DNA of 64,000 nucleotides from contig JAKSVI010000003.1 of assembly GCA_024408095.1 (NCBI GenBank), forward strand, positions 2,346 through 66,345. Reading direction: 5' to 3'. Shown here in pieces: positions 1,773 to 53,715 of the stretch. A model generated the notes under the pieces. That model saw nothing but the letters and a program-made list of their open reading frames with translations. It had not been told where the DNA came from and made no database searches. A program made the position numbers and the translations under genes. The stretch's first letter is position 1. Each line of letters begins with the position of its first letter. Origin of the DNA: Bacilli bacterium (GTDB lineage Bacteria; Bacillota_I; Bacilli_A; RFN20; CAG-826).

Positions 1773-1807
1773 TATCTTATGGTTGTGTTCAAAAGGAGAT
1801 AAATAAA

Positions 1808-3604: not shown

Positions 3605-3637
3605 TTTAAAAATATTATTTAAATAGAGAGGATCATT

Positions 3638-5027: not shown

Positions 5028-5046
5028 TTATGGAATATTTCCATAA
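5028..5046. promoter_or_regulatory. perfect 19-bp palindrome, candidate operator just upstream of the ARH gene RBS
   Basis: TTATGGAA-TAT-TTCCATAA, 20 nt upstream of the ATG at 5066 and downstream of the WYL-like regulator gene. Confidence 0.3.
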
Positions 5047-5065
5047 GAGTACAGAAAGGAGTATT

Positions 5066-5914: not shown

Positions 5915-5956
5915 TCAGAAATGGAACAAAATAGTAATAGTTAAAAGGGTAAAATT

Positions 5957-6751: not shown

Positions 6752-6772
6752 CAAGGTGAGCATATACTTAAG

Positions 6773-21304: not shown

Positions 21305-21327
21305 TTATTGAAAAGGAGAGAAGCATT

Positions 21328-22473: not shown

Positions 22474-22477
22474 TTCG

Positions 22478-23572: not shown

Positions 23573-23624
23573 TTCAATTAAGTTAAATAAATCAAAAGAA
23601 TGATATAATCATATTGTCTTTATT

Positions 23625-24416: not shown

Positions 24417-24485
24417 TAATGTTCAAAAAATAACAGTTGCATAAAATTTTGAACAAGAATATTATGTTCTTGGCAGTTTTTAATT

Positions 24486-26054: not shown

Positions 26055-26055
26055 T

Positions 26056-34571: not shown

Positions 34572-36056
34572 TTAAAGTCTGTCTACGAGTGTTGGATAAT
34601 CAATAAATGGATTTCTATTTCCTTGTACATTGAAAGCCCCTTCGTTTCTTTGTTTTTCAATATCATCTACCGGATCAATAGCATTCCAATATTTTAAAAT
34701 TTTCATTGCTTGATTAACGTTAGTTGCAACAACTAAACAATATAAACATAATCCGCCAGTATATTGTCTTTGTTCTATACCAGAAAATCCGCTGTTATAG
34801 TGCATATATGTGTATAAGACAATACGAGCTACATCGCCTTTTATTTTATCTGGAACTTCCCATGTTGTTTCTGTGTATTTTATTGGAGAGCCATAAGTTG
34901 TATCTATAGTGCTGCTTTTATATCCAAATAAAGAGCCAAATTGAAGGCTGCTTCTTGTTGAATTAACATTTTTATATGTTGGTCTTATATGGTGTAGATC
35001 ACAACCCCCGCCAGTTTCTCCCCAAAGTTGTTCTTGACTTCCTGGATATGGTATAGATAGAGATTGAGCCCAAACATGTTCTCTATTTGTGTTAGATTTC
35101 GAATATGTTTTTCCAGTGTAAAAGCACTTATAATAGCTTCCACTCGTTTCTCCGGTTTTGCTATACCCACTATATAAACCGTTATAAGTCATTTTTGAGA
35201 AATCATGGGTTTCAAACATCTTGGTTTGCAAATTTGACATCAATGTATTTCCTGAAACAGATAAATCAACATTGTTGTAATAATTTCCAGAATATGTATC
35301 TGAACCAGGATATGGAATTGAAGGAATAGATTTGCCCATAGGTGTGTATCCAACTACATAGCCCTGAAATTCTTTTATATTTTTCCACGATTGATATATG
35401 GTGTAGATACCTTCAATAATAACTTCATCGCCAGCGTGTATTTTGCCATCAAGAGATCCATATGATTTTTGTTCTACATAACTATATGTATTTCCATTTT
35501 TTTGAATTGAACTTTTTGTTGAACCGCATCCATAAACTTCTATATATCCAGATGCATCAGAAATATCAAAAACACCCTTTGTAGAGTATGTATTTTGTTC
35601 AACTATGCCTTTTATTCTATATAAATGTGTTGTATCGCTAGAACTTTTGTTAATTAATGTCGAAATTGAAACTTCTATTGCTTCCGGACTAGGATCGTTA
35701 ACTGCCTTATAGTCAGTGTGTTCTTGTTCTACAGTTAGCGATAAACTTCCTTCAACGTTATCAACTGAGTTCCAAGCGTGTAAGTATGTTGACCCTGCAG
35801 AAACGCCAGTAACTAGACCATTGTTATCAACACTGGCAATAGTTGTGCTGTCGCTTGACCATGTTAACAAGCCAGAATAATTCGTTGTAGTGATTTGAAG
35901 AGTTTTTCCTACTTTCACCACTGGATTTGTAGGAGAAAAAGTTAATTCTACTTTTGGTTTGGGAGGTGGATCAGGTGGATTATCTGATCCCGGAGTGGAA
36001 TTACATCCTGTTCCTAACAAAAGGAGGGGTAATATAAGGAGTGCTATTTTTTTCAT
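34572..36056 (-). CDS. surface lipoprotein: Big_2 domain + OB-like domain + endonuclease I
   Basis: Signal with Cys (LLLLGTGCNS). Ig-like VKVGKTLQITT...ASVDNNGLVTGVSAGS. Endonuclease I motifs NREHVWAQS, DLHHIRP and GNRNPFIDYP. An alternative start is at 36077. Confidence 0.8.
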   Translation of the reverse strand: MKKIALLILPLLLLGTGCNSTPGSDNPPDPPPKPKVELTFSPTNPVVKVGKTLQITTTNYSGLLTWSSDSTTIASVDNNGLVTGVSAGSTYLHAWNSVDNVEGSLSLTVEQEHTDYKAVNDPSPEAIEVSISTLINKSSSDTTHLYRIKGIVEQNTYSTKGVFDISDASGYIEVYGCGSTKSSIQKNGNTYSYVEQKSYGSLDGKIHAGDEVIIEGIYTIYQSWKNIKEFQGYVVGYTPMGKSIPSIPYPGSDTYSGNYYNNVDLSVSGNTLMSNLQTKMFETHDFSKMTYNGLYSGYSKTGETSGSYYKCFYTGKTYSKSNTNREHVWAQSLSIPYPGSQEQLWGETGGGCDLHHIRPTYKNVNSTRSSLQFGSLFGYKSSTIDTTYGSPIKYTETTWEVPDKIKGDVARIVLYTYMHYNSGFSGIEQRQYTGGLCLYCLVVATNVNQAMKILKYWNAIDPVDDIEKQRNEGAFNVQGNRNPFIDYPTLVDRL

Positions 36057-36132
36057 ATGTTTGTTTATATTATACATTTTCTGTGGAGATAAATATATTT
36101 ATTTAATTTTGTTTGAGTGATATAATCTTTGC

Positions 36133-36803: not shown

Positions 36804-39299
36804 ATGAGACATAAAATTAGCACTTCCATTTTGATATCAACATTACTGATTGGACTGAGTTCTGCAGGGATTTTGTTAAGCAATAAGCCAATTCCCAATA
36901 CATATGTAGAAACAGAAGCAACAAATCCTGAAGTAATGAAAATCAATGGACCTGTTTATGCTCCTTATAGCGGAAATTACTACGATTCAATTACTGCAAC
37001 AAGCGGTAAAGCTTTAAGAAATCAATTAACAGATTTGATTGATGGCCATACTGTAATTGGATATAAAAATTTAGAAACTGTTTATTATGATAGCGATTCA
37101 AGACCAGACGGAACTGTTTGGGATGTGTATGGCGATATTGACTATGATTTTTCTGATACCGGCCAATATTCAAAAGTTGGAGATTCATGGAATAAAGAAC
37201 ATGGAATTCCACAATCTTGGTTCGGCGAAGCGTCACCAATGAAGAGTGATGCATATCATGTTTATCCAACTGATGGATACATAAACAATTGGCGTGGAAA
37301 TATGCCACTTGGAGAAGTTAATACTGTCAGTAAAAGTTATACATTTAAAGGCACCTATGTTGAAGGCGTTTCGAAGTTGGGAACTAGCAAAACTTCTGGT
37401 ATATCTGGAACTGTTTTTGAACCTGCAGATTGCTATAAAGGAGATTTTGCTCGCTCATATTTCTATTTTGTAACTAGATACGCAAGCCAATGTGCTAGTG
37501 GAGCATGTAATAAATCATCTGAAGCAAATAAAGTTCTTACTAAAGATGACACTTATTTTCATTTAACGAAAGCTGCTGCAGATTTATTTTATAAATGGCA
37601 TAAACAAGATCCTGTAAGCCAAAAAGAAGTCAATAGATGTAATGGCATTCAACAACATCAAAAAAATAGAAATCCTTACATCGATCACCCTGAATATGTT
37701 GATGCTATTTGGGGAGATACACCTGTCCAAAAAGTTGATCCAACTGCTTTTGATTTTGAGAAAGATGAAGTTACTTTAATAAAAGATGAAACATTCAAAT
37801 TAGATGTAATTCCAACTCCAAGTAATGCAAATACCTCTGCAAATTGGGCATCTTTAGACACAAATATAGCAAGAGTCAATGATGGTTTGGTTACCGCTGT
37901 TGGTATTGGAACAACATATATAACTGCAACTAGTAAAGTAGTTCCAACAGTTAGTGCCTCATGCAAAATAACTGTTAAAGAGTTATCATCAATTTCTTTG
38001 TCTGGAACCGCAACTCAAACTGACTATTTTGAAGGAGATATTTTTAATCCTGATGGTATAACTGTTACTGCAAAATATACAGATGATAGTACATCAATTA
38101 TTGATAACTCACAATGTACTTGGGTTGATGGAAACACAGGCATTCAATATCTTTCTGTGGGAACAACCTTTGTTATTTGTAACTACCAAAATAAACAAGA
38201 ATCTTATCGCGGCATTACGGTTTCAGAGTCTCAGGGTGGATCTATAGAAATTGATATTAATTCTATTGAAGGACTATCAACTAAATATGCTTGGTATGAT
38301 TGGTCTAGTAATAACATCGAAGGTTCAATATATGCCTACCTTAGTAATAAAAATACAATTCAGATGAATAGCAGTAAGACCGCAAATATAATTTTTAATT
38401 CAAACGCTTTGCCTGGAAGAATAACAAAAGTAACAGTATATTCTGCAACAGGCACTCCAAAAGTTGAGGTTCGAACAAATAACGAGGCATTTGGAAAATG
38501 CAAAAATCCAACTACAGGAACTAGTGGCGGGCAAAAGAATGTTTCAACAACAGGAGTGACTTGGGAATTTACAACTCTTGATAAATATTTCGCAATTGTC
38601 GCTAGCGATGGTGTTTGCTATTTCTCAAAGTTTGTTATTGAATATGGAAACAAATCTCCAGACCCAGAAGTTCATGTCACCAGTGTTAATGTTTCTCCTT
38701 CTTATTTGTCTTTAAAAATCAATGATTCATATCAACTCACAACTGTTGTATTGCCAAGCAACGCAACTGATAAATCTTTAAGATATGTAAGCACTGATGA
38801 TAAGATTGTTTCTGTTTCAAATTCTGGTGAAATTCAAGCAATTAATGCAGGAACTGCAACGATTTCGGCCATTTCTAATGATGTTCCTACTATTTTTGGC
38901 ACATGCACAGTTGTTGTGGAAAATGACTATATTGAATTAGATGCAAACTCAAAATCGTTATTAGTCGGAGAGACAACAACTATCAATGTTGTCAGGGCAA
39001 GTAGAGAAGTTTCTTGGTCTTGTAATGATGACTCAATTATTAGAATAGCTGGTAGTAATACTGGTTGCCTTATTGAAGCCTTAAAACCTGGTAATGTTAC
39101 TCTAACTGCAACAGTTGGGGGGCAATCAGCATCTGTGAATGTTATAGTGAAAGAAGTTCCAGTTCCACCTCCAACTCCACCCGCTCCCAAAAAAGGGTGT
39201 GGTGGAGAGATTGCATCAACAAGTGCGATAATTGCTTTACTATCTATTTTTGGTGTAGGCATAATTTTATTAAGAAAAAAACAAAAACATGAGAAATAA
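36804..39299 (+). CDS. membrane-anchored endonuclease I with Big_2 repeats and GCGG-type C-terminal anchor
   Basis: N-terminal signal/anchor. Endonuclease I motifs WNKEHGIPQSW, DAYHVYP and NRNPYIDHP. At least three Big_2-like segments (e.g. IARVNDGLVTAVGIGTTYITA). The C-terminus is GCGGEIASTS + TM + RKKQKHEK. Confidence 0.85.
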   Translation: MRHKISTSILISTLLIGLSSAGILLSNKPIPNTYVETEATNPEVMKINGPVYAPYSGNYYDSITATSGKALRNQLTDLIDGHTVIGYKNLETVYYDSDSRPDGTVWDVYGDIDYDFSDTGQYSKVGDSWNKEHGIPQSWFGEASPMKSDAYHVYPTDGYINNWRGNMPLGEVNTVSKSYTFKGTYVEGVSKLGTSKTSGISGTVFEPADCYKGDFARSYFYFVTRYASQCASGACNKSSEANKVLTKDDTYFHLTKAAADLFYKWHKQDPVSQKEVNRCNGIQQHQKNRNPYIDHPEYVDAIWGDTPVQKVDPTAFDFEKDEVTLIKDETFKLDVIPTPSNANTSANWASLDTNIARVNDGLVTAVGIGTTYITATSKVVPTVSASCKITVKELSSISLSGTATQTDYFEGDIFNPDGITVTAKYTDDSTSIIDNSQCTWVDGNTGIQYLSVGTTFVICNYQNKQESYRGITVSESQGGSIEIDINSIEGLSTKYAWYDWSSNNIEGSIYAYLSNKNTIQMNSSKTANIIFNSNALPGRITKVTVYSATGTPKVEVRTNNEAFGKCKNPTTGTSGGQKNVSTTGVTWEFTTLDKYFAIVASDGVCYFSKFVIEYGNKSPDPEVHVTSVNVSPSYLSLKINDSYQLTTVVLPSNATDKSLRYVSTDDKIVSVSNSGEIQAINAGTATISAISNDVPTIFGTCTVVVENDYIELDANSKSLLVGETTTINVVRASREVSWSCNDDSIIRIAGSNTGCLIEALKPGNVTLTATVGGQSASVNVIVKEVPVPPPTPPAPKKGCGGEIASTSAIIALLSIFGVGIILLRKKQKHEK
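39195..39296 (+). other. 34-aa C-terminal tripartite signal (GCGG box, TM helix, basic tail), copy 1
   Basis: GCGGEIASTSAIIALLSIFGVGIILLRKKQKHEK. Same length and layout as the tail of the S8 protease. Confidence 0.6.
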
Positions 39300-39320
39300 A
39301 GTTAGGATTTATACCTAAAA

Positions 39321-39385
39321 AATGAGATTAAAACTATTTATATGTATTACTCAATTTGTCTCAATAAAGGGGATTTGCAGAGTTT
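39321..39385 (+). promoter_or_regulatory. conserved 5'-leader motif, copy B (unknown function)
   Basis: AATGAGAT-N23-TCAATTTGTCTCAATA-N5-GATTTGCAGAG-TTTTT. About 30 of 37 core positions match copy A at 9000-9036. Confidence 0.35.
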
Positions 39386-39411
39386 TTAACTAAAATTGTA
39401 GGAAATAATAT

Positions 39412-39825
39412 ATGTTTAAAATTTTAAGATGGTATCAAGAAACATGGAAATCTAATATTATTGCTTTTTTGATTGTTTCAGCAATTGGAATTGGTGGTTT
39501 TTGTCTGGTTTATTATTTGCAAAATCAAACTGTTGTTGCTGGAGCTAATGCTAGCGCAGTTGCTTTTGCTTTAACTGGAGCTACTTGTGCGTTCAGCATA
39601 CTTAACCGATTTGGAGCTTTTGATACCTTGGCTTATGGCGGTACTATGTTCATTAGAATGTTCTCATATAAACAAGAAAAAAAATATGATGATCTTGTTC
39701 AATATAAGAAAGTAAAATACGCGAAAAGATGTAAAAATTATTACTATGTCACATATGGCTTTATTGCGATTGTGTTTTTAGTGATATTAATTATTTTTGA
39801 GGTTAAATATCGCTCTATAATTTGA
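39412..39825 (+). CDS. small membrane protein (DUF3899-like)
   Basis: Three hydrophobic helices. The NRFGAFDTLAYGGTMFIRMF segment resembles DUF3899. Weak assignment. Confidence 0.55.
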   Translation: MFKILRWYQETWKSNIIAFLIVSAIGIGGFCLVYYLQNQTVVAGANASAVAFALTGATCAFSILNRFGAFDTLAYGGTMFIRMFSYKQEKKYDDLVQYKKVKYAKRCKNYYYVTYGFIAIVFLVILIIFEVKYRSII

Positions 39826-39850
39826 TTTTTTTATATTTATATAAGCAACC

Positions 39851-39880
39851 AAACTCATGAAAAAAAATGAGTTTTTTTCT
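39851..39880 (+). terminator. intrinsic terminator
   Basis: AAACTCAT-GAAAAAAA-ATGAGTTT followed by TTTTCTTT. Confidence 0.65.
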
Positions 39881-39958
39881 TTATTTGTGTGTGCAACGTG
39901 TTATATATTATATACAATATACACTCTTGCGGGCGTATATGAAAAAGGAGGTTAAGAT

Positions 39959-42900
39959 ATGAAACCTATCAAATTATTCGCAGCAGCTTTAGCCGCTGGA
40001 TTATTAGCAATCCCAGCTGGAATTACTGCTCAACCATGCGAAGTAAAGGCTAACGATGCTCGTATTATCGTTGAAGTCGACAAAGCACTTGATGGTTTAT
40101 CTAATGAAGGCATCATTAATTCTCAAGATTCAGTCATTAGTAACATTAAGAGATTTGTTTCTTCTAACGTTAAACTCGAAACACGTTATTCTGTGCTTGC
40201 AAATGCTTTCTTGCTTTCAGTTAACAGCGAGGATATTGATTTAATTAAACAAGTCCCAGGTGTTAAAAGTGTTACAGTTGACAAACTACACTTCACTGAA
40301 ACTTATGATGGAGCCAAAAACGTCACGATTTATAGAGATGGCGGATCCAGCAAATATTCAGAAAGCGACAACATTTCAGGAATTACAATGAATGCACCTG
40401 AATTATCCAAAACAAGAGGTGGCGAAGGCGTCGCTATCGCTATTCTTGATAACGAATTCATGCTCAAGAAAAATTCCGCTGGTGTCATTAACAAAGAATA
40501 TACACACGAGACTTTTAACGATTTAAAGGTTGGTATAAAAACAAAATTTACACAAGATAGCATTGCTACAATCGTGAAAAATGCTGGTGATTCATTCCAT
40601 GGAAAACCAGGTTCTGCAAAAAATGAAACCACATATTTCAATAAAAAGGTTCCATTCTATTACGATTATGGTGGAGATACAACTTCTCCAAATGCTCAAG
40701 GTATGCCAGATTTCGATACTTACAGTGATGTTGCTGCCCATGGTAGCCACGTTGCAAGTATTGCCGCAGGTAATGGTGATACCTACAAAGGACTTGCTCC
40801 AAATGCACAATTAATTTGTATGAAAGTCTTTACAGTTTATGAACCAACTGAAGCTTTTAAAGCTATTGGTGCTGCTGGAGGTAGTGGAGCTTATGATTCA
40901 GCTATATTCAATGCCCTTGAAGATTGCATTACATTAGGTGTTGATGCAATTAACATGTCCTTAGGTAGTGATTTAGATGACTTTGATCAAGATTCCCTTA
41001 CATTAAGAACATTAAGGAGCATGCAAGATAAAGGAATTATCGCATGTATTGCTGCTGGTAACTCAGGTAAATCAGCCTATTCATTCACCGGTGCTTATGG
41101 TAACTGGACTGGTGATATGGTTGAAACTGGTATTATGTCTAGTTATGCTAACGTTCCAACAACAATGACTGTTGCAGCTGGTGTTCCTCTTGCAACATAC
41201 TTTGAAACCGCTGTTAACGTAAACAACGTTTCTATTCAATATGAAGACCAAGTTAAAAATAGAGACGATGACGATACAACCTTCCGTGAAGAAGACCAAA
41301 AATATATTTGGGATTTAACTCAAGATGGAACGATTACTGATTTCGAATTTGTTAAAGTTCCAGGATATGGCGAAGCCAAAGATTATGCCGCAATAGATGT
41401 TAGAGGCAAAATTGCTGTTGTTGATCGTGGATCTATTGATTTTGAAACCAAAGTCAAGAACGCTTATGGAAAAGGTGCAATTGCAGTCTTTATTATTGAT
41501 AACGACCCAACCGCTACCGAATTTTCATTTAGATGTTCATTCGGTACTTACGTTCCAGAAATTCCAGTTGCGCTAACTCTTTATAAGAATAGACCAACAT
41601 GGATTGATGCTGATCATGGTACATTAACTGTTATTAAAGACCAAATTCTTGATAACACAAATCCATACACCGCAGCTACATTCTCTACTGATGGTGCAAC
41701 ATACAATTATGATTTAAAACCAGATATTACAACTCCTGGTGAAGGTATTAAAGGTGCTGTTCCACCATACGATAAGAACAAATATAAAGATGTTTCTAAG
41801 TATAGAACACAATACGAATGGTACAGTGGTACATCAATGGCATGTCCTAACTACTGTGGTGTTGTGGCCTTAATGTTAGGTGAACATACAAATGAAGATC
41901 CTACTTCTTATAGAGCATTTAAAGATTCTCTCAACATGAGAGTTCAATCTACCGCTACTCCAATGGTGGAAAATAATGCTCATAATGTTGAAGTATATAC
42001 ATCACCTCGTATTCAAGGTGCAGGTATGGCAAACGTTGGCAACGCTATGACTTCTCAAGTTTATTTAGAAGGATTAACACAAACTGGCGAGCCAACTGCA
42101 AGAGGTAAAGTTTGCTTATACAATAATAGTGATATTGCTAACGGAAACTTAAAAGTTTCAGTTAGAGGACATAACGAAACAGATAAAGATGTTAAATATA
42201 ACGCTAAATTAGTTATTCAATATCCTGATGTTGTTGAAACAAACGATATCATTCAATCCGATTACAACAACATGGGTGAATTAAATACTTATGTTGAATT
42301 AGTCGGAAGTGCTAACGTTCCAGCTAAATGGATTATTGATGGAGCAGAAGTTGTTAACGAAGACTTCTGTGATGATCCTCTTGATGGCAAATACATCAAA
42401 GGTGTCGATGTTTCATTACTCAAAGTAAATGATGCATATAAAGTCAAAACCATCGATGAAAAATATTATTTAGGTGGCACATTAGAAGCAAATCAAAAAG
42501 CATTCTATTTCACTGGTGCAACATTACCAGATGGCTCAATTGATAGAGCAAATTGCTGGCAACATGTACCATTTAAACAATATCAATCAGTTAAAGATCA
42601 AATTCTTGCTGAAACAACTCCAACAACTGTCACATTCAAAAGTGATTCCTCATTAATTATCGGTAATGAAAACGACATTACTATTCCATATGAAATCACT
42701 GCTGAACAAAAGAAAAAAATCAACGATTTCTATAATTATGGATGTGCTATTGAAGGATATCTAGTTTTAGAACCAATTGATGAGAATGAAGGTGTCGTAT
42801 TAAACGTTCCATTCCTCGGATTCTATGGTGACTATTCAAAAGCCCCAGCAGTTGAACCATTCTTCTTTGAAAAAGAAGTTGGAAAAATTTATCCATCTGA

Positions 42901-44302
42901 TTTACTAAATGATTTCGCTAAAAACACAATGGCGAAAGATAACACAGATTGTTCAAGTACTTGGATTGCTGGATATGCAACTTCTCCAGGTGATATCTAC
43001 ATTGATGGAGTTACCAAAAATGATGATAGCTTCAGAGCTTGGACAGAAAAAGGTAATAACTGGTACAAAGCTGGTACAGATCCATTAACTGGTGAAGTGA
43101 CTCGCGATGCTGATGGAAAAGTTGTTATCTACGCGGGTAACAGCAGAAAATCTAACACCATGATTATTCAACAAACTGTATTAAGAAGTGTTAGCAAAAA
43201 CAAAGTTACAATCACTTCTTCCACAGGCCAAGTTGTATATGAAGGATATTTCACAGAAAATATCGGATATGGCGATGAAAGTGAACTTTATAAGTCTCAC
43301 GCAATGGCATCTACATACATTGCCCACCGCGCACAGATTATTATTCCTTTATACAATAAGGCAACCGGTGAAATGTTCCCTGATGGTGAATACACAATCA
43401 GCATGAAATATACATTAGCTGGTGTTACTGATGACAGAAGCACAATCGTTCCAGAAAATGAACAAGAACTCAGATACAAATTGATAATGGATAACACACC
43501 AAGTGAATTATCAGTTGAATCTAGTGAAGGTAATATCGCCATTAAAAATAGTGCTGGCGAAGTAACTGGTCATACTACTGGAAAAGTCTTAAAAGTTAAT
43601 GTTAAGGAACAAGCATTATCATCATTAGTATTTGATAAGACAACCATTAGACCACGTTCAAGCACTAATCCAGATAAAGAAGGATACTATGGTTTCTACA
43701 AAAATAGTGATGGAACATATAGCTATGAAATCGGAGCTAACGATGCTGCTAAAGTTACACAGAAAAATAAAGGCAGATTAACAGTTGAATCAGTTGATAT
43801 GGCTCATGGCACAAACTGCTTCATCCTCAGTGGATATACAGCAGATTGTGATCCAACATTACTCCCAAGTATCTCTTCTAATTCATTAGATGCTGGAGTA
43901 AACTTCGAATTCCAAGTTAATGCTGCTAAAGATTATATTTCTGTAAACGTGTTCACATATGATTCACGTGGACACGAAGTGCCATTAACATTGACTCAAC
44001 CAATTGATGTTACATTCTGCTTAGAAGATGTACTTGGTAGAAGCAACTTAGATAACGTCAAAATATATGATGGTAACACTCAAGAAAGAGTCCAAGTCAC
44101 AGCAGAAATTAGAACTGTTGGTGACAAACACTTAGCCACCATTAAAACACAAACAGGCACAATTAAATTAGAATATCCTGCTGCACCTAGCAATAATGGT
44201 TGTGGCGGAAACATTGCTGCTACAAGCACACTCATTAGCTTATTAGCAGTATGTGGAATAGGAATTATCCTATTAAACAAGAAAAAACATATTGAAGAGT
44301 AG
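39959..44302 (+). CDS. cell-envelope S8 (subtilisin-family) serine protease with PA domain and GCGG-type C-terminal anchor
   Basis: AAAGGAGG RBS and a signal peptide. Catalytic Asp (VAIAILDNEF), His (HGSHVASIAAG), Asn (AAGNSG) and Ser (SGTSMACPN). PA-domain insert GKIAVVDRGSIDFETKVKNAYGKGAIAVFIIDN. Lactocepin/C5a-peptidase-like size. Confidence 0.9.
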   Translation: MKPIKLFAAALAAGLLAIPAGITAQPCEVKANDARIIVEVDKALDGLSNEGIINSQDSVISNIKRFVSSNVKLETRYSVLANAFLLSVNSEDIDLIKQVPGVKSVTVDKLHFTETYDGAKNVTIYRDGGSSKYSESDNISGITMNAPELSKTRGGEGVAIAILDNEFMLKKNSAGVINKEYTHETFNDLKVGIKTKFTQDSIATIVKNAGDSFHGKPGSAKNETTYFNKKVPFYYDYGGDTTSPNAQGMPDFDTYSDVAAHGSHVASIAAGNGDTYKGLAPNAQLICMKVFTVYEPTEAFKAIGAAGGSGAYDSAIFNALEDCITLGVDAINMSLGSDLDDFDQDSLTLRTLRSMQDKGIIACIAAGNSGKSAYSFTGAYGNWTGDMVETGIMSSYANVPTTMTVAAGVPLATYFETAVNVNNVSIQYEDQVKNRDDDDTTFREEDQKYIWDLTQDGTITDFEFVKVPGYGEAKDYAAIDVRGKIAVVDRGSIDFETKVKNAYGKGAIAVFIIDNDPTATEFSFRCSFGTYVPEIPVALTLYKNRPTWIDADHGTLTVIKDQILDNTNPYTAATFSTDGATYNYDLKPDITTPGEGIKGAVPPYDKNKYKDVSKYRTQYEWYSGTSMACPNYCGVVALMLGEHTNEDPTSYRAFKDSLNMRVQSTATPMVENNAHNVEVYTSPRIQGAGMANVGNAMTSQVYLEGLTQTGEPTARGKVCLYNNSDIANGNLKVSVRGHNETDKDVKYNAKLVIQYPDVVETNDIIQSDYNNMGELNTYVELVGSANVPAKWIIDGAEVVNEDFCDDPLDGKYIKGVDVSLLKVNDAYKVKTIDEKYYLGGTLEANQKAFYFTGATLPDGSIDRANCWQHVPFKQYQSVKDQILAETTPTTVTFKSDSSLIIGNENDITIPYEITAEQKKKINDFYNYGCAIEGYLVLEPIDENEGVVLNVPFLGFYGDYSKAPAVEPFFFEKEVGKIYPSDLLNDFAKNTMAKDNTDCSSTWIAGYATSPGDIYIDGVTKNDDSFRAWTEKGNNWYKAGTDPLTGEVTRDADGKVVIYAGNSRKSNTMIIQQTVLRSVSKNKVTITSSTGQVVYEGYFTENIGYGDESELYKSHAMASTYIAHRAQIIIPLYNKATGEMFPDGEYTISMKYTLAGVTDDRSTIVPENEQELRYKLIMDNTPSELSVESSEGNIAIKNSAGEVTGHTTGKVLKVNVKEQALSSLVFDKTTIRPRSSTNPDKEGYYGFYKNSDGTYSYEIGANDAAKVTQKNKGRLTVESVDMAHGTNCFILSGYTADCDPTLLPSISSNSLDAGVNFEFQVNAAKDYISVNVFTYDSRGHEVPLTLTQPIDVTFCLEDVLGRSNLDNVKIYDGNTQERVQVTAEIRTVGDKHLATIKTQTGTIKLEYPAAPSNNGCGGNIAATSTLISLLAVCGIGIILLNKKKHIEE
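44198..44299 (+). other. 34-aa C-terminal tripartite signal (GCGG box, TM helix, basic tail), copy 2
   Basis: GCGGNIAATSTLISLLAVCGIGIILLNKKKHIEE. Confidence 0.6.
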
Positions 44303-44321: not shown

Positions 44322-47300
44322 ATGAAAAAATTTAGTAAAATTTCATTAGCTGCTTTAGTATTTACCACTGTTGGAGTTGCTGTCATTGGCTGTGACAATC
44401 ATAGTGGTGGAGGTTCTGAGCCAAGCTTTGATGATAAAGCCTTGTCTTTCTCATTAAGTGTTAATAATGGTTCAAATATTCTTAAAACAGATGAAGAATA
44501 TAAAATCAATGTCATTATTCAAACGCCAGATTTAGATTATGATCCAAAATTCACCTATGATTTAGAAAACTACTATTTCGAATATGGTGAAGATCCTACA
44601 ACTAAAGAACCTTATGTCTATGAAGCTAACGTTTGGGAATACATGGATTTAATTCAAAAAGCAGATGGATATTATGTTAAGCCATTAAAATCCACCGTCA
44701 TCACATTTAAAGGTGAAGATGGAGATTTCCATACTTTCAATGATGGGTTTGATATTAAAGTTGAAGGCAAACAGCCAACTTCTTCAGGTCTTGATAAGAA
44801 AGTTACTCAATATTATCCAGTTAGAGCCACCAGCGCTTCCCAAGCAGAAGGTGGATATAACTATTCAACTTTAAAATATGGTGATGAAGATCCATCCACT
44901 GAAATTCTTGGTAAACTTGAAAAATACGCGATGGATAACCATTTAACTGGTATCTCATTATTCGAAGATAGCGGTTATATTTGCTACAATTCACGTGTTA
45001 AATCACCAAATGAATTTAAATACTTAACTAACTATGGTTTTGGTATTCTTTCCGATGGCAAAATCGAAGGTACATTAAGTGGTGATGAAGGTAAATACAA
45101 ACCAGCATATTACCACACTCAAAGCGCTAGCAACCCACAAACTATCAACGCTTTAAATAACCAAGGTAGTGAAGTTTCTAGTTTATATGATTACATTTCT
45201 TCAAGCTACTACAGCATGAAGTTAAATGATGAGAAAAATAACTCTATTTGGTATCCAGTTTTAGCAAGCAATATTGCTAGACAAGTTAATGGCCCAATTG
45301 CTTCAACTGCTGATGGCACTGAAACAGGTTTAACAACCTCTACATGTTGGAAAATTTACGTCAAATGTAAAGAAAATAAAACTCTTTCTACAGGCGCACA
45401 TGATGATAAATTAACATATGGATATAAAGGCAGAAGAGTCGATTCCAACTATGTTTCATTCGATGGAAGAGAAGTTTCTATCGACGATTATTTATTTGCC
45501 TATCAACTTCTTTTAACCGGACACCACAACTATTTCCGTGGTAGTGAACTCGCTGGAGATACAACTTATGGTATCGTTGGAGCAGCAATATTCAATTCAC
45601 GTACAAAAGTTGCTGCAACTCCAGAAAAAGAAAAAGAATTATTTAATTCATATGTTGGAGTTAAAAAAGGCCACGATGATGATGGATATTTCATCACAAT
45701 CAACCTTTTAAATCCTGTTGATCAATTTACAGCAATGTACACATTATCAAGTTCATTATATTGCCCTGTTCCAGAAGATTTTGTTAGACAAGTTGGACCA
45801 GCCTATTATGGTACAAACACTGGAACAGATTATAAAATTACTGATAATATCTTATCTCTTGCTCCATACACACTTGAATTATGGGACGATCAAAACATCG
45901 ACTTTGTCCGTAATCCAAATTGGCAAGAATTCTTAGCCACTGACGCTGAGGATGATGTTAAAGGTAAAGGTACAATTTCTCATTATCCAGGCACAAAAGG
46001 CCGTTATTCTATTGCTGGAGTTACTAACAGAATTAACACTGCTTTAGCAAGCGATCCAAATGCTTTATTTAAAAACTACTTAAGTAACAACGTTGATGCT
46101 GCTTCAATTCCTGTTGCATATTTAAACGATGTTACAACCGATTACCGCAGTATGGGTCATAAGAGTGAAGGTTCTTCAGTCTTTAAGTTAAATATTAACT
46201 CCTGTACACAAGCTGAATGGGATAGCTTATTTGGCCCAAATGGCTCTAATCCAAAACATGTCAATAGTGAAAGTGAAAAATACACATGTAAACCATGGAT
46301 GAGCAATGACAACTTCTTAAATGGTTTAAACTTCTCTATTAACCGTAAACAATTCGCAGACAAACGTGGAGCAGATCCAAGCAACAATTACTTCTCTAAT
46401 TCATATATGTCTGATGCACGTAATTCAGTCTCATACAATAGCACTCCAGAACACGCAGAAGCGATGAAAAATTACTATCCTGAAACAAGTGGATATAACC
46501 AAACCGCTGCTCGTAGTTCATTTAAGAAAGCCATTGCTGAATTAGTTGACCAAAATGTTATTCAATATGGCACTTACAGCAATCCTACAGTATTAGATAT
46601 TGATATTTGGTGGATGTATGAAAGTGACAAGACCGACTATGGTGTTGAGATCGAAAACTACTTTACTGAATGTTTCAACGATCCAACTGTCTGTGGCGGT
46701 AAAGTTATCTTAAAAGTTAACCACTTCGCAGAAACTGCATGGGATAAAGTTTATAGCGCTCACTTACAAGTCGGTCAATTTGACTTAGGATTTGGTGCTA
46801 TTAGTGGTAACACATATAGCCCATTAAACTTCCTTGAAGTCTTAAAGAGCGATGATTCCTCAGGATTCACCCTCAACTGGGGTACTGATACTTCTGTTGC
46901 TGATCCAGCACTCGAATACGATGGCAAATACTGGTCATTTGATTCATTATGGACTGCTGCAGATCATGGTGGAATTTTCCATAATGGTGAAATTGTCACA
47001 ACATCTAAAGGCTATATTAATAAAGTATTTGATGAATTAGCAATTGATGAAAGTGGCTCTGTTATCGCCGGTGATTTATCCGCTGGTGGTAAAATCAAAA
47101 TCGATTACATCTTCGCTGATATCGTTGGTATCGTAGAAGATGATAAACGAGGTGTTAAATTTGAAATCGATAATATTCAATTATTTGCTTATGGTGATCA
47201 AGTCTTCACCTTCACTAAAGAAGATGGTGAATTATTAATTGAAAAAGACAGTGAACATCCAAATCAAGGTTCAGTAACTGTTATCATTTCTGCTCAAAGA

Positions 47301-47525
47301 GCAGCTGATATTGAAGCTGCAATTCGTAGAGGTGGCAATATTAAAGATACAGATTTAAAACACTATTTCCAAAAAATGTATTACGAAAGCAGATGGGAAC
47401 TTGAATTCCATTACACAATGCAAATCGGTAGCACAGGTATTCCAAGCAACGGAAGTAACTTCATCTACCTCGATAAAGCTGAAATGGATAAATATGTAAC
47501 CAGAGGCTTAAAACTCGGTAAATAA
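44322..47525 (+). CDS. oppA: giant lipoprotein, probable oligopeptide-binding protein (family-5 SBP, OppA-like)
   Basis: AAAGGAG RBS and lipobox AVIGC. Segments resemble family-5 SBPs (GREVSIDDYLFAYQ, YCPVPEDFV). Sits directly upstream of oppBCDF. At 1067 aa it is about twice the usual size. Confidence 0.6.
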   Translation: MKKFSKISLAALVFTTVGVAVIGCDNHSGGGSEPSFDDKALSFSLSVNNGSNILKTDEEYKINVIIQTPDLDYDPKFTYDLENYYFEYGEDPTTKEPYVYEANVWEYMDLIQKADGYYVKPLKSTVITFKGEDGDFHTFNDGFDIKVEGKQPTSSGLDKKVTQYYPVRATSASQAEGGYNYSTLKYGDEDPSTEILGKLEKYAMDNHLTGISLFEDSGYICYNSRVKSPNEFKYLTNYGFGILSDGKIEGTLSGDEGKYKPAYYHTQSASNPQTINALNNQGSEVSSLYDYISSSYYSMKLNDEKNNSIWYPVLASNIARQVNGPIASTADGTETGLTTSTCWKIYVKCKENKTLSTGAHDDKLTYGYKGRRVDSNYVSFDGREVSIDDYLFAYQLLLTGHHNYFRGSELAGDTTYGIVGAAIFNSRTKVAATPEKEKELFNSYVGVKKGHDDDGYFITINLLNPVDQFTAMYTLSSSLYCPVPEDFVRQVGPAYYGTNTGTDYKITDNILSLAPYTLELWDDQNIDFVRNPNWQEFLATDAEDDVKGKGTISHYPGTKGRYSIAGVTNRINTALASDPNALFKNYLSNNVDAASIPVAYLNDVTTDYRSMGHKSEGSSVFKLNINSCTQAEWDSLFGPNGSNPKHVNSESEKYTCKPWMSNDNFLNGLNFSINRKQFADKRGADPSNNYFSNSYMSDARNSVSYNSTPEHAEAMKNYYPETSGYNQTAARSSFKKAIAELVDQNVIQYGTYSNPTVLDIDIWWMYESDKTDYGVEIENYFTECFNDPTVCGGKVILKVNHFAETAWDKVYSAHLQVGQFDLGFGAISGNTYSPLNFLEVLKSDDSSGFTLNWGTDTSVADPALEYDGKYWSFDSLWTAADHGGIFHNGEIVTTSKGYINKVFDELAIDESGSVIAGDLSAGGKIKIDYIFADIVGIVEDDKRGVKFEIDNIQLFAYGDQVFTFTKEDGELLIEKDSEHPNQGSVTVIISAQRAADIEAAIRRGGNIKDTDLKHYFQKMYYESRWELEFHYTMQIGSTGIPSNGSNFIYLDKAEMDKYVTRGLKLGK

Positions 47526-47542
47526 TAGGAGGACGATTAAAT

Positions 47543-48592
47543 ATGAAAGCAATTAAATATTTCCCAATCGCTCTTACCGCTATTCTTCTTTCTAGCTGTG
47601 GATTTTCTAAAGGAATTCAAACATTAGCAACTGATGAAGAAGGACAAAATAATTCTACCGAAGTAGCATTAAGTTACACAGATGCTTATCTGCTTGCAAG
47701 CAGCATCCAAAATGCTCAAAAACTTTTAGTCCAACCAAACAAACTTACTTTAACAGAAACTGTTCATAGTAAAGAAATTGAAAACAGTATGGTCAAAGAA
47801 GAATACGACTATGAATATGTTGCGAGACTTGACTATGCCGAAGGTTATTATCGTACAAATTTAAAGCAAGAAAGTAAAGAATGGAACAATACCCTACAAA
47901 AGTATATAAATTATACTTACGATATTGAAAACACCGTTTGGACTACTGATTCATACAAAACATATTTCACTGAAAGATATATCAAATACGAAGACGGCAT
48001 AAAAATCGAAGACAGCAAAATTTATGCTGAATGGAATATGGGTTATTATGAAGGTCACTCAACTGTTTTTGGAAAAGGTAAAGTCGCTGCTTTAATGGAT
48101 GTCTTAAACCATTTCTTCTCAGGCAGAGCAGATGTCGGTGAAGAAATTGAAGAAAATGATTTCGGTGAATATGTTGTCAAGCATATGTTTGAGAATTTCA
48201 AAGGAACAGAAAATCTTGCGGACGCGAAAGAGGCCGCAAAAGTCCTATCAACTGGTAAACAATGGCACCCATTTAGTGGAATTACATATGAATTCTGCAA
48301 AGCCAATTTTACTGGTGATAGTCAAGACAGCTCATTATTAAAATTCTCCCGTCAATTTGCTGGAACAACTTATGATTCAGTTTACAAAACTCTTCATTTA
48401 GATTTTGATCAAGAAGACATTTGGCAAAATAATCTTTGTGTCGGAATGAAAGATAAAAGAAAATTAAATTCATTAGACAATGCCTATGTTATCGATCAAA
48501 CTGTTGCTGACAAATATTCAACAGAAGAATTTTCAAACGATCATGTTGATCCTGACAAAGAAGGCTACATTAAATTAGACCTAACCTACTAA
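47543..48592 (+). CDS. lipoprotein of unknown function
   Basis: AGGAGG RBS and lipobox LLSSC. No domain recognised. Confidence 0.7.
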   Translation: MKAIKYFPIALTAILLSSCGFSKGIQTLATDEEGQNNSTEVALSYTDAYLLASSIQNAQKLLVQPNKLTLTETVHSKEIENSMVKEEYDYEYVARLDYAEGYYRTNLKQESKEWNNTLQKYINYTYDIENTVWTTDSYKTYFTERYIKYEDGIKIEDSKIYAEWNMGYYEGHSTVFGKGKVAALMDVLNHFFSGRADVGEEIEENDFGEYVVKHMFENFKGTENLADAKEAAKVLSTGKQWHPFSGITYEFCKANFTGDSQDSSLLKFSRQFAGTTYDSVYKTLHLDFDQEDIWQNNLCVGMKDKRKLNSLDNAYVIDQTVADKYSTEEFSNDHVDPDKEGYIKLDLTY

Positions 48593-48611
48593 AATTTATT
48601 TTCATTTAAAA

Positions 48612-48642
48612 AGAGCCGCAATTATGTGGCTCTTTTTCTTTT
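48612..48642 (+). terminator. intrinsic terminator
   Basis: AGAGCCGC-AATTAT-GTGGCTCT (one G-U pair) followed by TTTTCTTTT. Confidence 0.7.
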
Positions 48643-48657
48643 AAGTTTTATTTTAAA

Positions 48658-48686
48658 ACTTGATTTAATATGTGGTATTAGTTAAA
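48658..48686 (+). promoter_or_regulatory. sigma-A-type promoter for oppBCDF
   Basis: TTGATT - 17 nt - TAAAAT, about 45 nt upstream of the oppB RBS (GAAGGAGG). Confidence 0.5.
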
Positions 48687-48732
48687 ATATAACACATATT
48701 TCATAAATGAAATAGCAAAGAAGGAGGAACGG

Positions 48733-49767
48733 ATGGTCAAATATTCGATTAAAAGAATTATTTTAGCCCTTGTTACGGCATTCATTATTTTGTCGTTAAC
48801 ATTTATTTTAGTTAAATCCATCCCATTAGTGGTTGAAGCTGGAAGTACCACTGCAAGTAAATTTGCCTTCTTTGAAAAGCAAGTTAGTTTAGGATACGTT
48901 ATTTCCACAAACACTCCTAGAAGTGATTTAGGACCTTTATTATTTAGCTATAAGCCGCAGGGCGCTGCTATGATTTATTATTATGAACGCCCAGTCTTGG
49001 ACCAATATGTTAACTGGTTAGGTAATATTTTTAGAGGAGATTGGGGTACTTCAACTGCTATTAAAATGAATGTTGGAGCGATGGACATTATTCTAGAACG
49101 ATTGCCTACTTCATTAATTATTAACATTATTTCTGTTGTTATTTCTGTTCCATTAGGAATTTTATTAGGTATTGTTGCAGGATTAAGAAAAAACACTTGG
49201 GTTGACCACTTAATTTCAACCTTAGTTATGATATTCATCTCCATTCCTTCATTCGTTATTATTACCTACATGATATATTTCTTCGCATTTAAAGCAGGAG
49301 CGCTGCCGATGATGTGGCCTAATAGCAATGCACCGATTGAGAAGAGGCTTTTAGGATTAATTATTCCTGTTGTATCTCTTTCATTTGGTTCTATTTGTGG
49401 TTATACCAGATTTGTTCGTGCTGAACTTTGTGAAGTTATGTCTAGTGAATATTTATTGCTTGCTAGAACGAAAGGTTTGACTAAGAATCAAGCTATTACC
49501 AGACACGCCTTAAGAAATGCATTCGTGCCTATTTTGCCATCGATTTTGGCAGAATTTATAGGTGTTTTTGGTGGTTCAATGATTTTGGAAGGCTTATATA
49601 ATATTCCAGGTATTGGAAGTTTATACATTGATGCTTTGAATAAGAAAGACTATAACGTTTTGATGGTTGATATGGCGGTATTTACTATCATTGGCCTTTT
49701 AGCAGGAATCGTCCTCGATTTGTCCTATGGATTTATTGATCCACGTATCAGAATGGGAGAGAAATAA
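48733..49767 (+). CDS. oppB: oligopeptide ABC transporter permease OppB
   Basis: Binding-protein-dependent transport permease fold. EAA-like loop LLARTKGLTKNQAITRHALRNA. Sits in the opp context. Confidence 0.85.
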   Translation: MVKYSIKRIILALVTAFIILSLTFILVKSIPLVVEAGSTTASKFAFFEKQVSLGYVISTNTPRSDLGPLLFSYKPQGAAMIYYYERPVLDQYVNWLGNIFRGDWGTSTAIKMNVGAMDIILERLPTSLIINIISVVISVPLGILLGIVAGLRKNTWVDHLISTLVMIFISIPSFVIITYMIYFFAFKAGALPMMWPNSNAPIEKRLLGLIIPVVSLSFGSICGYTRFVRAELCEVMSSEYLLLARTKGLTKNQAITRHALRNAFVPILPSILAEFIGVFGGSMILEGLYNIPGIGSLYIDALNKKDYNVLMVDMAVFTIIGLLAGIVLDLSYGFIDPRIRMGEK

Positions 49768-49769
49768 TT

Positions 49770-51929
49770 ATGGCGAAGAAAAATAATGACTTCGATTTAG
49801 TTAATCTTCCTATTGAAGCACAGGATCCAAGCATTTCCGCCGAAGACTTTGTTCCTACAAGTGCTGATAAACAAATCCACGAGCAACATTTCCAAACTAA
49901 ACCAACAACATTCTTTATAGATAGTATGAAGAGATTTGCGAAAAACAAATCTTCTGTTGTTGCTGCAGTTATTTTAGGCTTGCTATTAATCCTGGCGTTT
50001 GTTGTCCCTGCTGTTGAAAGCGATGTTGATAAATCAATGACTAGCTATGCAACATATCTAGAACCTAAATTATTTGATTCCGGTACAGGATGGTGGGATG
50101 GCACTAAAAAGTGTGTCGATATTGCCTTAGATCCTGTTTCAGGTTTACCTGATCCAACCGTTTATAAAGAAAACGCAATTATTGGTGGTAAAGCTGGTAT
50201 TACTAGAACTGGACGTAAAATTCGTAATAGTCCAAACCCATATGCTATTGGCGGCGATGTTAAATTCTATATTGACCGTAACACAACTACAGATTTAGCA
50301 TTCTTTAGAACTAATACTTTCTTAACATATAAAGATCCAAGTAAACCAATGGAACAACGTCAAGTTATTGAAAACGAAAACGTTGTATTTGATTCATCAA
50401 AAGAAACATTTGGTATTAAATTTGCTATTAGTAATCTTGATTATCCTAAAGAACAATATCCAGAATTAGAATTCACAGATTTTTCTATTGCCATTTACTA
50501 TAACGTTGATGGTGGATCTGATCCTTATATCTTGAAAGAATATAAGAAAGAAGATATCAAACCATCTAGTGAATTTATGGAAATTCCAGATGTCAGCAAA
50601 CAAATTAGAGACAATAAAGATACAGAGATGACAAAATTTGTTAATCCTCATATTGCCTTCATAATTAAGAACCAATATGAAGATATCGAATATTCTATAA
50701 TGATTAATCAATTATTATTTGATACTAATGGAATTACAAACAATCCTAATTTAAAAGTCGGTCTTGATGAAGCACAATTTAGCGACGCTAATGAGTGCTT
50801 ATTACGTGAAAATAAGATTGATATTAATATCAGCCAAGATAAATATAAACAATTCATCAATCCTACAGGTTGGTCAAGCAGCAGCTTTATGGGATTATCG
50901 AATGCAGTCTATGAATCATGTACCTTCGTATATGATACTTACGAGGCAGCCTTAGGTTTAACAAAAGATTATCCTCTTGGTAACGATAAATTACAATCAT
51001 ATGAAAATATGGGGTATTTTAAAACATATTTAAAGAACGCAGGTTCTTCTAGATATGTTGAAGGCAGTATCGGAGATGTTAATAGAAACACCCAATCTAT
51101 TAAACTTGAAATATTAAATTATGATAAATGCCCAATTGTTCCAACTGATCCAGAGGGCGATGTATACAAAATTAAAAATTACGATTCATATGGCTGGCAA
51201 ATTGACGTCAATATTTTGATTTATAAGTATTATGGTTATTCTTCAATGCCACGATATATTTTTGGTACCGATGCTTCAGGACATAATATGAATAAATATG
51301 TATTTGAAGGATTACGAAATTCATTGTTATTAGGTATCATTACATCCGCGATTTGCTTTGTTTTTGGTCTTTTATGGGGATCAATTTCTGGATATTTCGG
51401 TGGCACAACCGACTTAGTTATGGAACGTTTTACCGATATTCTTTCTGGTGTGCCGTGGATTGTTGTTATGACTTTGTGCATTATTAAGCTGGGACAATCA
51501 ATGCTTGTCTTTGGTATATCGTTATGTTTGACTGGGTGGATTGGCACAGCAGCAACTACACGTACGCAGTTCTATCGATTTAAAAATAGAGAATATGTAT
51601 TCGCTTCTCGAACGTTGGGCGCGAGCGATGCTCGACTTATTGTAAAACATATTTTGCCTAACGCGATGGGAACAATCATCACTGGAGCTGTTTTAATGAT
51701 ACCTAGTGTTATTTTCTCAGAAGCTACAATTTCTTATTTAGGATTAGGATTAAAAGGAATGTCTAGCTTAGGTGTTATTCTTTCTGATAACCAAAAAGAA
51801 CTCATTACCCATCCTTATCTTTTGATATTCCCATCAATCATCATTGCGTTGATTATGATCTCATTTAACTTATTCGGTAATGGATTACGTGACGCTATTA
51901 ACCCAAGCTTGAAAGGAGAAGATGAATAA
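49770..51929 (+). CDS. oppC: oligopeptide ABC transporter permease OppC with ~430-aa extracytoplasmic insertion
   Basis: The C-terminal 220 aa are a typical OppC core (ASRTLGASDARLIVKHILPNA). A long non-hydrophobic segment lies between TM1 (residues ~62-82) and the next TM (~505). Confidence 0.85.
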   Translation: MAKKNNDFDLVNLPIEAQDPSISAEDFVPTSADKQIHEQHFQTKPTTFFIDSMKRFAKNKSSVVAAVILGLLLILAFVVPAVESDVDKSMTSYATYLEPKLFDSGTGWWDGTKKCVDIALDPVSGLPDPTVYKENAIIGGKAGITRTGRKIRNSPNPYAIGGDVKFYIDRNTTTDLAFFRTNTFLTYKDPSKPMEQRQVIENENVVFDSSKETFGIKFAISNLDYPKEQYPELEFTDFSIAIYYNVDGGSDPYILKEYKKEDIKPSSEFMEIPDVSKQIRDNKDTEMTKFVNPHIAFIIKNQYEDIEYSIMINQLLFDTNGITNNPNLKVGLDEAQFSDANECLLRENKIDINISQDKYKQFINPTGWSSSSFMGLSNAVYESCTFVYDTYEAALGLTKDYPLGNDKLQSYENMGYFKTYLKNAGSSRYVEGSIGDVNRNTQSIKLEILNYDKCPIVPTDPEGDVYKIKNYDSYGWQIDVNILIYKYYGYSSMPRYIFGTDASGHNMNKYVFEGLRNSLLLGIITSAICFVFGLLWGSISGYFGGTTDLVMERFTDILSGVPWIVVMTLCIIKLGQSMLVFGISLCLTGWIGTAATTRTQFYRFKNREYVFASRTLGASDARLIVKHILPNAMGTIITGAVLMIPSVIFSEATISYLGLGLKGMSSLGVILSDNQKELITHPYLLIFPSIIIALIMISFNLFGNGLRDAINPSLKGEDE

Positions 51930-51931
51930 TT

Positions 51932-53713: not shown

Positions 53714-53715
53714 TT

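Follow-up and report, generated by a model that had tools for sequence, protein, structure and literature searches.

Why should two secreted enzymes that are otherwise unrelated, encoded close together on the same strand, end in the same 34 residues? This question is raised by a 64-kb stretch of DNA (64,000 nucleotides, about 30% GC; hereafter the window) from contig JAKSVI010000003.1 of the Bacilli bacterium assembly GCA_024408095.1, in which an endonuclease I of 831 residues and an S8 subtilase of 1447 residues carry similar C-terminal sequences, GCGGEIASTSAIIALLSIFGVGIILLRKKQKHEK and GCGGNIAATSTLISLLAVCGIGIILLNKKKHIEE, respectively, referred to here as the GCGG tail. The corresponding NCBI proteins (MCQ2814865.1 and MCQ2814867.1) belong to the 'Bacilli bacterium' metagenome-assembled genome (MAG) GCA_024500545.1, also assembled from SRR17543907. 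The GCGG tails form a genuine family, as yet absent from the catalogues, of strictly C-terminal, lineage-restricted tripartite domains on unrelated secreted enzymes of uncultured low-GC Bacilli from gut and rumen; the tail probably represents a new tag for anchoring proteins.

When the two window proteins were compared by BLASTP, the only significant alignment was the tail (20 of 34 residues identical, 59%; 28 of 34 positives; ungapped; E 5e-9), and everything outside it had E >= 0.9. An earlier note on this DNA, made from the letters alone, had claimed both this restriction of the likeness to the tail and a divergence at synonymous sites, and both were borne out. The tails start at the Gly codons at 39195 (endonuclease) and 44198 (protease), and each is 34 codons long, up to the stop codon. 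The same codon is used for only 8 of the 20 identical residues and a different one for the other 12, and nucleotide identity is 63% over the 102 nt; the likeness is thus held at the protein level and does not reflect a recent DNA duplication. A six-frame regular-expression search combined with a degenerate DNA pattern found exactly these two C-terminal motifs in the window, as against 0 expected in shuffles. For the last 500 residues of the S8 protease, the protein search returned one distant homologue, a fragment without the tail.

The tail is not confined to these two proteins. A hidden Markov model (HMM) built from the two tails and run against 1.84 billion (1.84e9) cluster representatives gave 41 matches at E <= 1e-3, and all 41 end at the C-terminus or a few residues from it. 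The matched proteins, every one from a metagenome assembly, are 53 to 1447 aa long, and the complete ones begin with signal peptides. With a word-indexed protein search, the two-tail alignment gave one candidate and no match, and an alignment of 67 tails gave nine short fragments only.

One genome per GTDB species was scanned at the DNA level with a degenerate pattern for G-C-G-G-x-I-x-[ATS]-T-S-(9 residues)-G, which occurred at a minimum of 119 loci. Counting as true tails those in which a hydrophobic stretch, a K/R cluster and a stop codon 30-40 codons past the motif were present, there were at least 33 in at least 23 assemblies (species-level MAGs, 23-46% GC), and at least 10 assemblies held two or more. 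The titles of the tail-positive assemblies, among the matches listed, nearly all name Bacilli, Mollicutes, Anaeroplasma, Erysipelotrichaceae or 'Bacillales UBA', from rumen, horse and human gut; the other 87 pattern matches listed were out-of-frame or internal chance matches, mostly in GC-rich genomes. A stricter pattern, which retained 24 of the 33 true and none of the 87 false loci, had 21 matches in the JGI metagenomes, of which 18 are true tails, one lying in a locus with 54% GC. The tail had been proposed as a candidate novel sorting or anchoring signal, with the reservation that it might exist only in these two proteins; its C-terminal recurrence on dozens of unrelated secreted proteins (41 profile clusters, at least 23 species-level MAGs, and metagenomes) supports the proposal and removes the reservation.

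Among individual occurrences, contig L064 (JAILBR010000043.1) has three tail genes (408, 453 and 966 aa) within 8 kb, with the signature variants KCGG, GCGG and SCGG. Typical GCGG-tail genes were also found in assemblies labelled Escherichia coli and Gemmiger formicilis ('cleanbin'), on contigs L042 (CAVGNR010000007.1) and L097 (CAVDWX010000048.1), respectively; the GC contents of the 8-kb stretches are 40% and 31%, and these are probably mis-binned Bacilli contigs. Two mini-proteins, P0017 (88 aa) and P0023 (76 aa), consist of nothing but a lipoprotein signal peptide with its lipobox Cys and, after a short hydrophilic linker, the GCGG tail, and a third, P0072 (78 aa), of an ordinary signal peptide and the tail.

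Alignment of 67 non-redundant tails on the Cys (position 0) gave a uniform picture: a K/P-rich hydrophilic linker is followed by G-C-G-G-[SN]-I-x-[AT]-T-S, a helix of about 21 residues with one conserved Gly, and a Lys/Arg cluster. In the linker, P, A, T and K are over-represented from -8 to -2, with K commonest at -3 and -2. The Cys is present in all 67 sequences, G(-1), G(+1), G(+2), I(+4) and S(+8) in 66 each, and T(+7) in 61. Position +3 is S (42), N (18), E (4) or D (3), +5 is free, and +6 is mostly A (39), T (18) or S (8). The hydrophobic run extends up to +24; S/A stand at +12 and +15, and 65 of 67 tails have G(+18). Since +4 to +24 is virtually free of charged residues and Pro, the signature abuts the helix without a spacer. 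K/R residues follow at +25 to +29, and the distance from the Cys to the protein end is 29-39 residues (median 32). Taking into account that the variants ACGG, KCGG, SCGG, GCSG, GCKG and GCGGT occur, the minimal core is C-G-G-x-I-x-x-T-S. The box GCGG-x-IA-x-TS and the helix motif GxGIILL, described from the two window tails, hold in part: the Cys, its flanking Gly residues, I(+4), T(+7), S(+8) and the mid-helix G(+18) are invariant or nearly so, whereas the 'A' of 'IA' and everything past the first Gly of GxGIILL are variable.

The proteins that carry the tail are diverse. In 28 full-length members, Pfam identified Endonuclease_1 (10), Big_2 (9), Big_3 (8), Flg_new (3) and S8 with PA (2), and further a GDSL/CE2 esterase, GH3, a hyaluronate-lyase N domain, a ricin lectin, a GA module and a cadherin-like domain. 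This cargo spectrum is the repertoire usual for cell-surface anchoring signals. The neighbours of the tail genes are mainly ABC importers, solute-binding proteins, rhamnosidases and other glycosidases. In a neighbouring protein of locus L032, a suspected sortase B signal of the QVPTGV type was not supported.

The two window tails, 39 family tails and an idealised consensus were compared with the model libraries NCBIfam 20.0 (June 2026) and Pfam. None of their models covers the GCGG signature, and none of the motif strings turned up in this context in the searchable literature, so that the suspicion that this is not a named CTERM family has held; the weak matches obtained fall on the helix and the basic part. 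Loki-CTERM matched 20 of the 39 tails below its cut-off (18.6-18.7 versus 19.9, model positions 6-25, that is, helix and basic part), Rumino_NPXTG and Heimdall-CTERM matched weakly, and PEP_CTERM matched 4 of 39 at E >= 0.015. No score of PEP-CTERM, PGF-, PEF-, Loki- or Heimdall-CTERM was above cut-off, and no PEP or PGF motif is present in the tails. MYXO-CTERM (TIGR03901) matched one of the 39 tails below its cut-off (E 0.032), and neither the window tails nor the idealised consensus. The models of Synerg-CTERM (TIGR04564), JDVT, CGP-CTERM (TIGR04288) and GlyGly-CTERM gave no match at E <= 10.

The GCGG tail has the generic layout of tripartite sorting domains: a signature, a transmembrane helix and a basic cluster at the extreme C-terminus of many unrelated signal-peptide proteins within one lineage. 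The earlier note had likened it to LPXTG, PEP-CTERM, GlyGly-CTERM and MYXO-CTERM signals. The tripartite layout and the nearness of MYXO-CTERM stood up to the comparison, but LPXTG and PEP-CTERM are not the nearest relatives: judged by sequence features, the closest described kind is that of the Cys-containing tripartite signals (MYXO-, JDVT-, Synerg- and CGP-CTERM), above all MYXO-CTERM. MYXO-CTERM is about 34 aa long, with a frequent GCGC motif and a helix without charged or Pro residues (Haft 2023, bioRxiv 10.1101/2023.06.07.544157), and its cleavage by the CPBP protease MrtX was shown experimentally to depend on the Cys (Guo, Haft & Wall 2025, PMC11980579). A signature abutting the helix goes with deeply membrane-embedded sorting enzymes, whereas LPXTG has a spacer (Haft, bioRxiv 10.1101/2023.06.07.544157). 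With MYXO-CTERM the GCGG tail shares the tripartite layout, a similar length (about 34 aa), an invariant Cys with Gly on either side (GCGC versus GCGG), the signature abutting the helix, a helix without charged or Pro residues, and the apparent presence on many unrelated surface proteins per genome. It differs in that it has only one Cys, that I-x-x-T-S and a Gly in mid-helix are conserved, and that its end is rich in Lys and not in Arg. The hosts differ as well, low-GC Bacilli as opposed to diderm Myxococcota, so that there is no outer membrane or type II secretion step. Moreover, MYXO-CTERM has its cognate CPBP myxosortases (MrtX, MrtC, MrtP), whereas for the GCGG tail one CPBP-motif gene was seen, in locus L137 (see below).

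Synerg-, JDVT- and CGP-CTERM, with the CPBP proteases MrtS, MrtJ and MrtA, respectively, also have an invariant Cys directly before the helix, are likewise lineage-restricted, and are predicted to undergo lipidation of the Cys and then cleavage. Their flanking motifs (a Ser/Gly cluster ending in Cys, a DP motif, and CGP) are unlike GCGG, and so are their taxa (Synergistota, scattered Proteobacteria, and Thermococcales, respectively). A more distant likeness exists to the N-terminal lipobox (Lgt/Lsp) and to the eukaryotic CAAX motif (prenylation, Rce1, isoprenylcysteine carboxyl methyltransferase (ICMT)): in these, too, a Cys at the membrane interface lies beside a removable hydrophobic segment, with small residues (G/S/A) between helix and Cys. 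The orientation of the GCGG tail is reversed relative to them, with the Cys ahead of the helix and at the C-terminus. No evidence was found of an Lgt or a prenyltransferase acting on the Cys of the GCGG tail.

We favour, at about an even chance and by analogy with the Cys-type signals, the reading that a membrane-embedded enzyme reads the tail, that the Cys is lipid-modified and the helix removed, and that the secreted enzyme is thereby tethered to the surface. After Sec export, the helix would keep the protein in the membrane with its N-terminus outside and the Lys-rich end in the cytoplasm, so that the invariant Cys would come to lie on the outer face of the membrane. A membrane-embedded sorting enzyme would then recognise the helix by its conserved outer half, the Cys would be lipidated, and the helix would be cut off just after the Cys by an intramembrane endopeptidase, as in MYXO-CTERM; this would most likely be a 'myxosortase' of the CPBP/Rce1 type and less likely a rhomboid. 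The nuclease or protease would stay on the cell surface through its lipidated C-terminal Cys, with the net effect that scavenging enzymes would be displayed beside their uptake transporters. In support of this reading are the recurrence of the tail on unrelated cargo, also in the 54% GC locus, the codon differences, the lipobox-bearing Endonuclease_1 paralogue next door to the tailed endonuclease (Table 1), and the mini-proteins that combine a lipoprotein signal with the tail.

Several points weigh against it. The transfer of a Cys-type CTERM mechanism to Bacilli is by analogy, and all Cys-type CTERM systems known to us come from diderm bacteria or archaea and have Arg-rich tails. The conservation is partly inflated, as 33 of the 67 tails were selected by a pattern that fixes several of the conserved positions; the 41 HMM-derived tails give the same conservation picture as the pattern-derived ones. 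Of the processing enzyme itself there is little sign. Pfam, applied to nearly all open reading frames (ORFs) of at least 120 aa in the window, several of which have no family at all, detected no CPBP, rhomboid, sortase or exosortase family, in agreement with the earlier remark that no sorting enzyme is visible there. In 138 ORFs next to tail genes from 32 loci, the 25 commonest families include no protease or sortase; this list ends among two-member families, so that two occurrences of such a family are possible. The families that recur in these ORFs are only transporters and glycosidases. Precomputed Pfam annotation showed no sorting enzyme within +-10 kb of the tails in six further metagenome contexts, and clustering of the neighbouring proteins showed none either.

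The one candidate is in locus L137 (JGI contig Ga0310694_10000136; 54% GC, unlike the other loci), where an ORF of 258 aa with 6 helices (4737-5513) has all three CPBP/Rce1 motifs, EExxxR, FxxxH and HxxxN. It lies 3.2 kb downstream of the tail gene and beside an lgt homologue (tblastn to annotated lgt genes, best E 4e-14), both being 3-4 kb from the tail gene; the order in 118-7107 is tail protein, Big_2-rich lipoprotein, CPBP-motif ORF, lgt homologue (opposite strand) and another lipoprotein. The ORF had no PDB or plasmid match, and its CPBP call is one by motifs only. This ORF, picked out by a motif screen, and its lgt neighbour are the sole CPBP-like and the sole lgt-like gene in about 570 kb of tail-adjacent DNA. 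Because one such locus is about what chance would give in this amount of DNA, L137 is to be taken as a lead and not as evidence.

Of the other explanations, the one that survives best is a plain, unprocessed C-terminal anchor of a type I membrane protein, in which the GCGG/IxxTS face would serve helix packing with a partner, clustering near transporters, or reversible S-acylation or disulfide formation, the module having spread by domain shuffling in one lineage. A hydrophobic helix with a Lys-rich stop-transfer tail is enough to anchor a protein, the small-residue patterns (S/A/T/G) in the helix could serve packing, and the failure to find a processing enzyme in the window, or recurrently near other tails, speaks in its favour. 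However, the other secreted proteins encoded on the same contigs have C-terminal anchors made of a helix and basic residues without any conserved motif, so the GCGG signature is unnecessary for anchoring as such. Taking into account that these co-resident proteins are anchored without the motif, yet five to eight positions of the tail are near-invariant in many genera and on unrelated cargo, even in an organism of 54% GC, a specific reader is called for; the tail is conserved far beyond the needs of a plain membrane anchor. In addition, an invariant Cys right at the membrane interface is a hallmark of processed Cys-type CTERM signals. We regard a plain anchor as rather unlikely.

Intramembrane cleavage without lipidation is improbable in our view. 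Here a rhomboid-type (rhombosortase-like) or other protease would cut the Gly/Ser/Ala/Thr-rich start of the helix, leading to shedding or to transamidation to an acceptor. The signature is rich in the small residues favoured by rhomboids, the helix has a conserved, helix-destabilising Gly, and GlyGly-CTERM/rhombosortase is a precedent for a Gly-rich motif abutting a helix, whose founding cargo, VesB, is also a serine protease. In contrast to GlyGly-CTERM, which the tails do not match (see above), the GCGG tail has an invariant Cys, which rhomboid cleavage would leave unexplained; rhombosortase systems are proteobacterial and type II secretion-dependent, and no rhomboid-like gene was seen in the tail-adjacent DNA (about 570 kb), which was screened by motifs only.

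The comparison with LPXTG_anchor (TIGR01167) has a bearing on the last alternative, a degenerate sortase signal of the LPXTG type, whose pentapeptide would have drifted and which a sortase would cleave and join to peptidoglycan. On this model, tails taken by themselves score 16.1-17.8 bits (cut-off 15.9), and 30 of the 39 match it at E <= 10, but the alignments run from model position 7 or 8 to 34, that is, over the spacer, helix and basic tail and past the LPXTG motif; the match is not reported for the full-length window proteins, and Pfam Gram_pos_anchor (PF00746) scores 13.2 against a cut-off of 20. Although the GCGG tail resembles LPXTG signals in its occurrence in Bacillota, in its C-terminal helix and basic tail, in its cargo and in these borderline matches, such a signal is very improbable, since there is no LPXTG-like pentapeptide in the window tails (as the earlier note had stated) or in the 67 aligned ones, which have an invariant Cys in its place and a motif that directly joins the helix; there is also no LPXTG-type signal in about 330 kb of tail-bearing contigs and no TLxTC sortase motif in a screen of the tail-adjacent DNA, and several carriers are labelled Mollicutes or Anaeroplasma, which classically lack a cell wall.

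The preferred reading, lipidation of the Cys followed by removal of the helix, can be extended into a more specific proposal, which we offer tentatively, as in this full form it is unlikely to be right. In Mollicutes-like Bacilli of gut and rumen, the tail would act as a 'reverse lipoprotein' signal: the Cys would be lipidated by an Lgt-like transferase, a dedicated CPBP/Rce1-type protease would remove the helix, and the C-terminal lipid would hold the scavenging enzymes, replacing sortase/LPXTG anchoring where cell walls are reduced or absent. This would be the first Cys-type CTERM/myxosortase-like system in monoderms. The host lineage consists of monoderm, possibly partly wall-less Bacilli, in which Cys-type CTERM signals have not been described before. 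Should lipidation of the Cys and removal of the helix prove true, the range of Cys-type CTERM sorting would extend from diderm bacteria and archaea to monoderm or wall-less Bacillota.

C-terminal sorting signals determine which proteins a bacterium shows on its surface, and to our knowledge every such signal, once recognised, has opened the way to a sorting enzyme not known before (sortase, exosortase, archaeosortase, rhombosortase, myxosortase). The GCGG tail marks surface enzymes (nucleases, proteases, esterases and glycosidases) and adhesin-like repeat proteins of a large group of uncultured gut and rumen Bacilli known from MAGs only. A model of the tail would correct annotation, as the loose LPXTG_anchor model can pull in some members; it would also permit prediction of the surface proteome and provide phylogenetic profiling with a clean query for the cognate enzyme.

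Table 1. Tail-bearing genes of the window, parts of their tails, and adjoining features (positions are those of the window)
Feature	Position	Strand	Basis
Endonuclease I gene, 831 aa; secreted, N-terminal signal peptide, Big_2 repeats, GCGG tail	36804..39299	+	ORF; Pfam Endonuclease_1 E 1.9e-58, Big_2 x3; NCBI 'endonuclease' MCQ2814865.1
Endonuclease linker EVPVPPPTPPAPKK, Pro-rich, Lys at its end, ahead of the signature	39153..39194	+	Translation
Endonuclease signature box GCGGEIASTS, Cys codon 39198-39200	39195..39224	+	Translation, family alignment
Endonuclease predicted transmembrane helix EIASTSAIIALLSIFGVGIILL, overlapping the signature end, with the conserved mid-helix Gly	39207..39272	+	Sequence; family position table
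Endonuclease basic tail RKKQKHEK (predicted cytoplasmic) and stop codon	39273..39299	+	Translation, family alignment
S8 subtilase gene, 1447 aa; secreted, signal peptide, PA insert, GCGG tail	39959..44302	+	ORF; Pfam Peptidase_S8 E 1.9e-29, PA E 9.8e-11; NCBI 'S8 family serine peptidase' MCQ2814867.1
Protease signature box GCGGNIAATS, Cys codon 44201-44203	44198..44227	+	Translation, family alignment
Protease predicted transmembrane helix NIAATSTLISLLAVCGIGIILL	44210..44275	+	Sequence; family position table
Protease basic tail NKKKHIEE and stop codon	44276..44302	+	Translation, family alignment
Paralogous Endonuclease_1 and Big_2 protein, 501 aa; N-terminal lipoprotein signal (LLLLGTGC), no C-terminal tail	34572..36077	-	Translation; Pfam
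Small membrane protein, 137 aa, between the two tail genes; DUF3899-like by motif only; context, not shown to be part of the system	39412..39825	+	Sequence
Peptide-acquisition locus with the S8 protease: two orphan lipoproteins (1067 aa, 349 aa), then Opp-type ABC permeases and ATPases	44322..55212	+	Lipoboxes; Pfam BPD_transp_1, OppC_N, ABC_tran, oligo_HPY

The tailed endonuclease and its lipobox-bearing paralogue adjoin divergently, so that the same enzyme type is found here with two anchoring solutions. The small membrane protein between the two tail genes had no Pfam or NCBIfam match. It shows a weak BLASTP likeness (E 0.012) to a Pfam-confirmed DUF3899 protein that adjoins the tail gene in another locus (L040, 3215-3757), and a GAF(D/E)xxxYG region is common to both. 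DUF3899 as a partner of the tail was rejected, as it occurs only twice in 59 loci.

Downstream of the protease, the two orphan lipoproteins (44322-48592, + strand) matched no Pfam, NCBIfam or PDB sequence; from their location, they may serve the peptide transporter as its substrate-binding components. The Opp-type ABC components that follow (48733-55212, + strand) are unusually long, with long insertions: one permease has 719 aa, and the ATPases (593 and 498 aa) have split ABC_tran matches. They resemble the inserted Opp proteins of Mollicutes.

Elsewhere in the window, a DUF1295 protein of 292 aa with 7 helices (9050-9928, + strand) has weak matches to the steroid reductase, PEMT and ICMT families; it is mentioned since ICMT acts after Rce1 in CAAX processing, and there is no link to the tails. 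A set of glycopolymer/phosphocholine genes (20111-28657, + strand) encodes a CapD-like dehydratase with a helix-turn-helix (HTH) domain, a UDP-GlcNAc 2-epimerase, a second epimerase, LicD, an amidohydrolase, a fusion of MarR-HTH, nucleotidyltransferase and choline kinase, and a second nucleotidyltransferase. Together with an IspD/TarI-like cytidylyltransferase (36133-36801, + strand) directly upstream of the tailed nuclease, this set is relevant to possible teichoic-acid-like polymers in the host. Finally, a mobile or defence-related islet may be present at 153-6751 (+ strand), where a Fic/DOC protein, an ADP-ribosylglycohydrolase and a short FtsK/SpoIIIE-like ATPase are encoded along with several ORFs that fall into no family.

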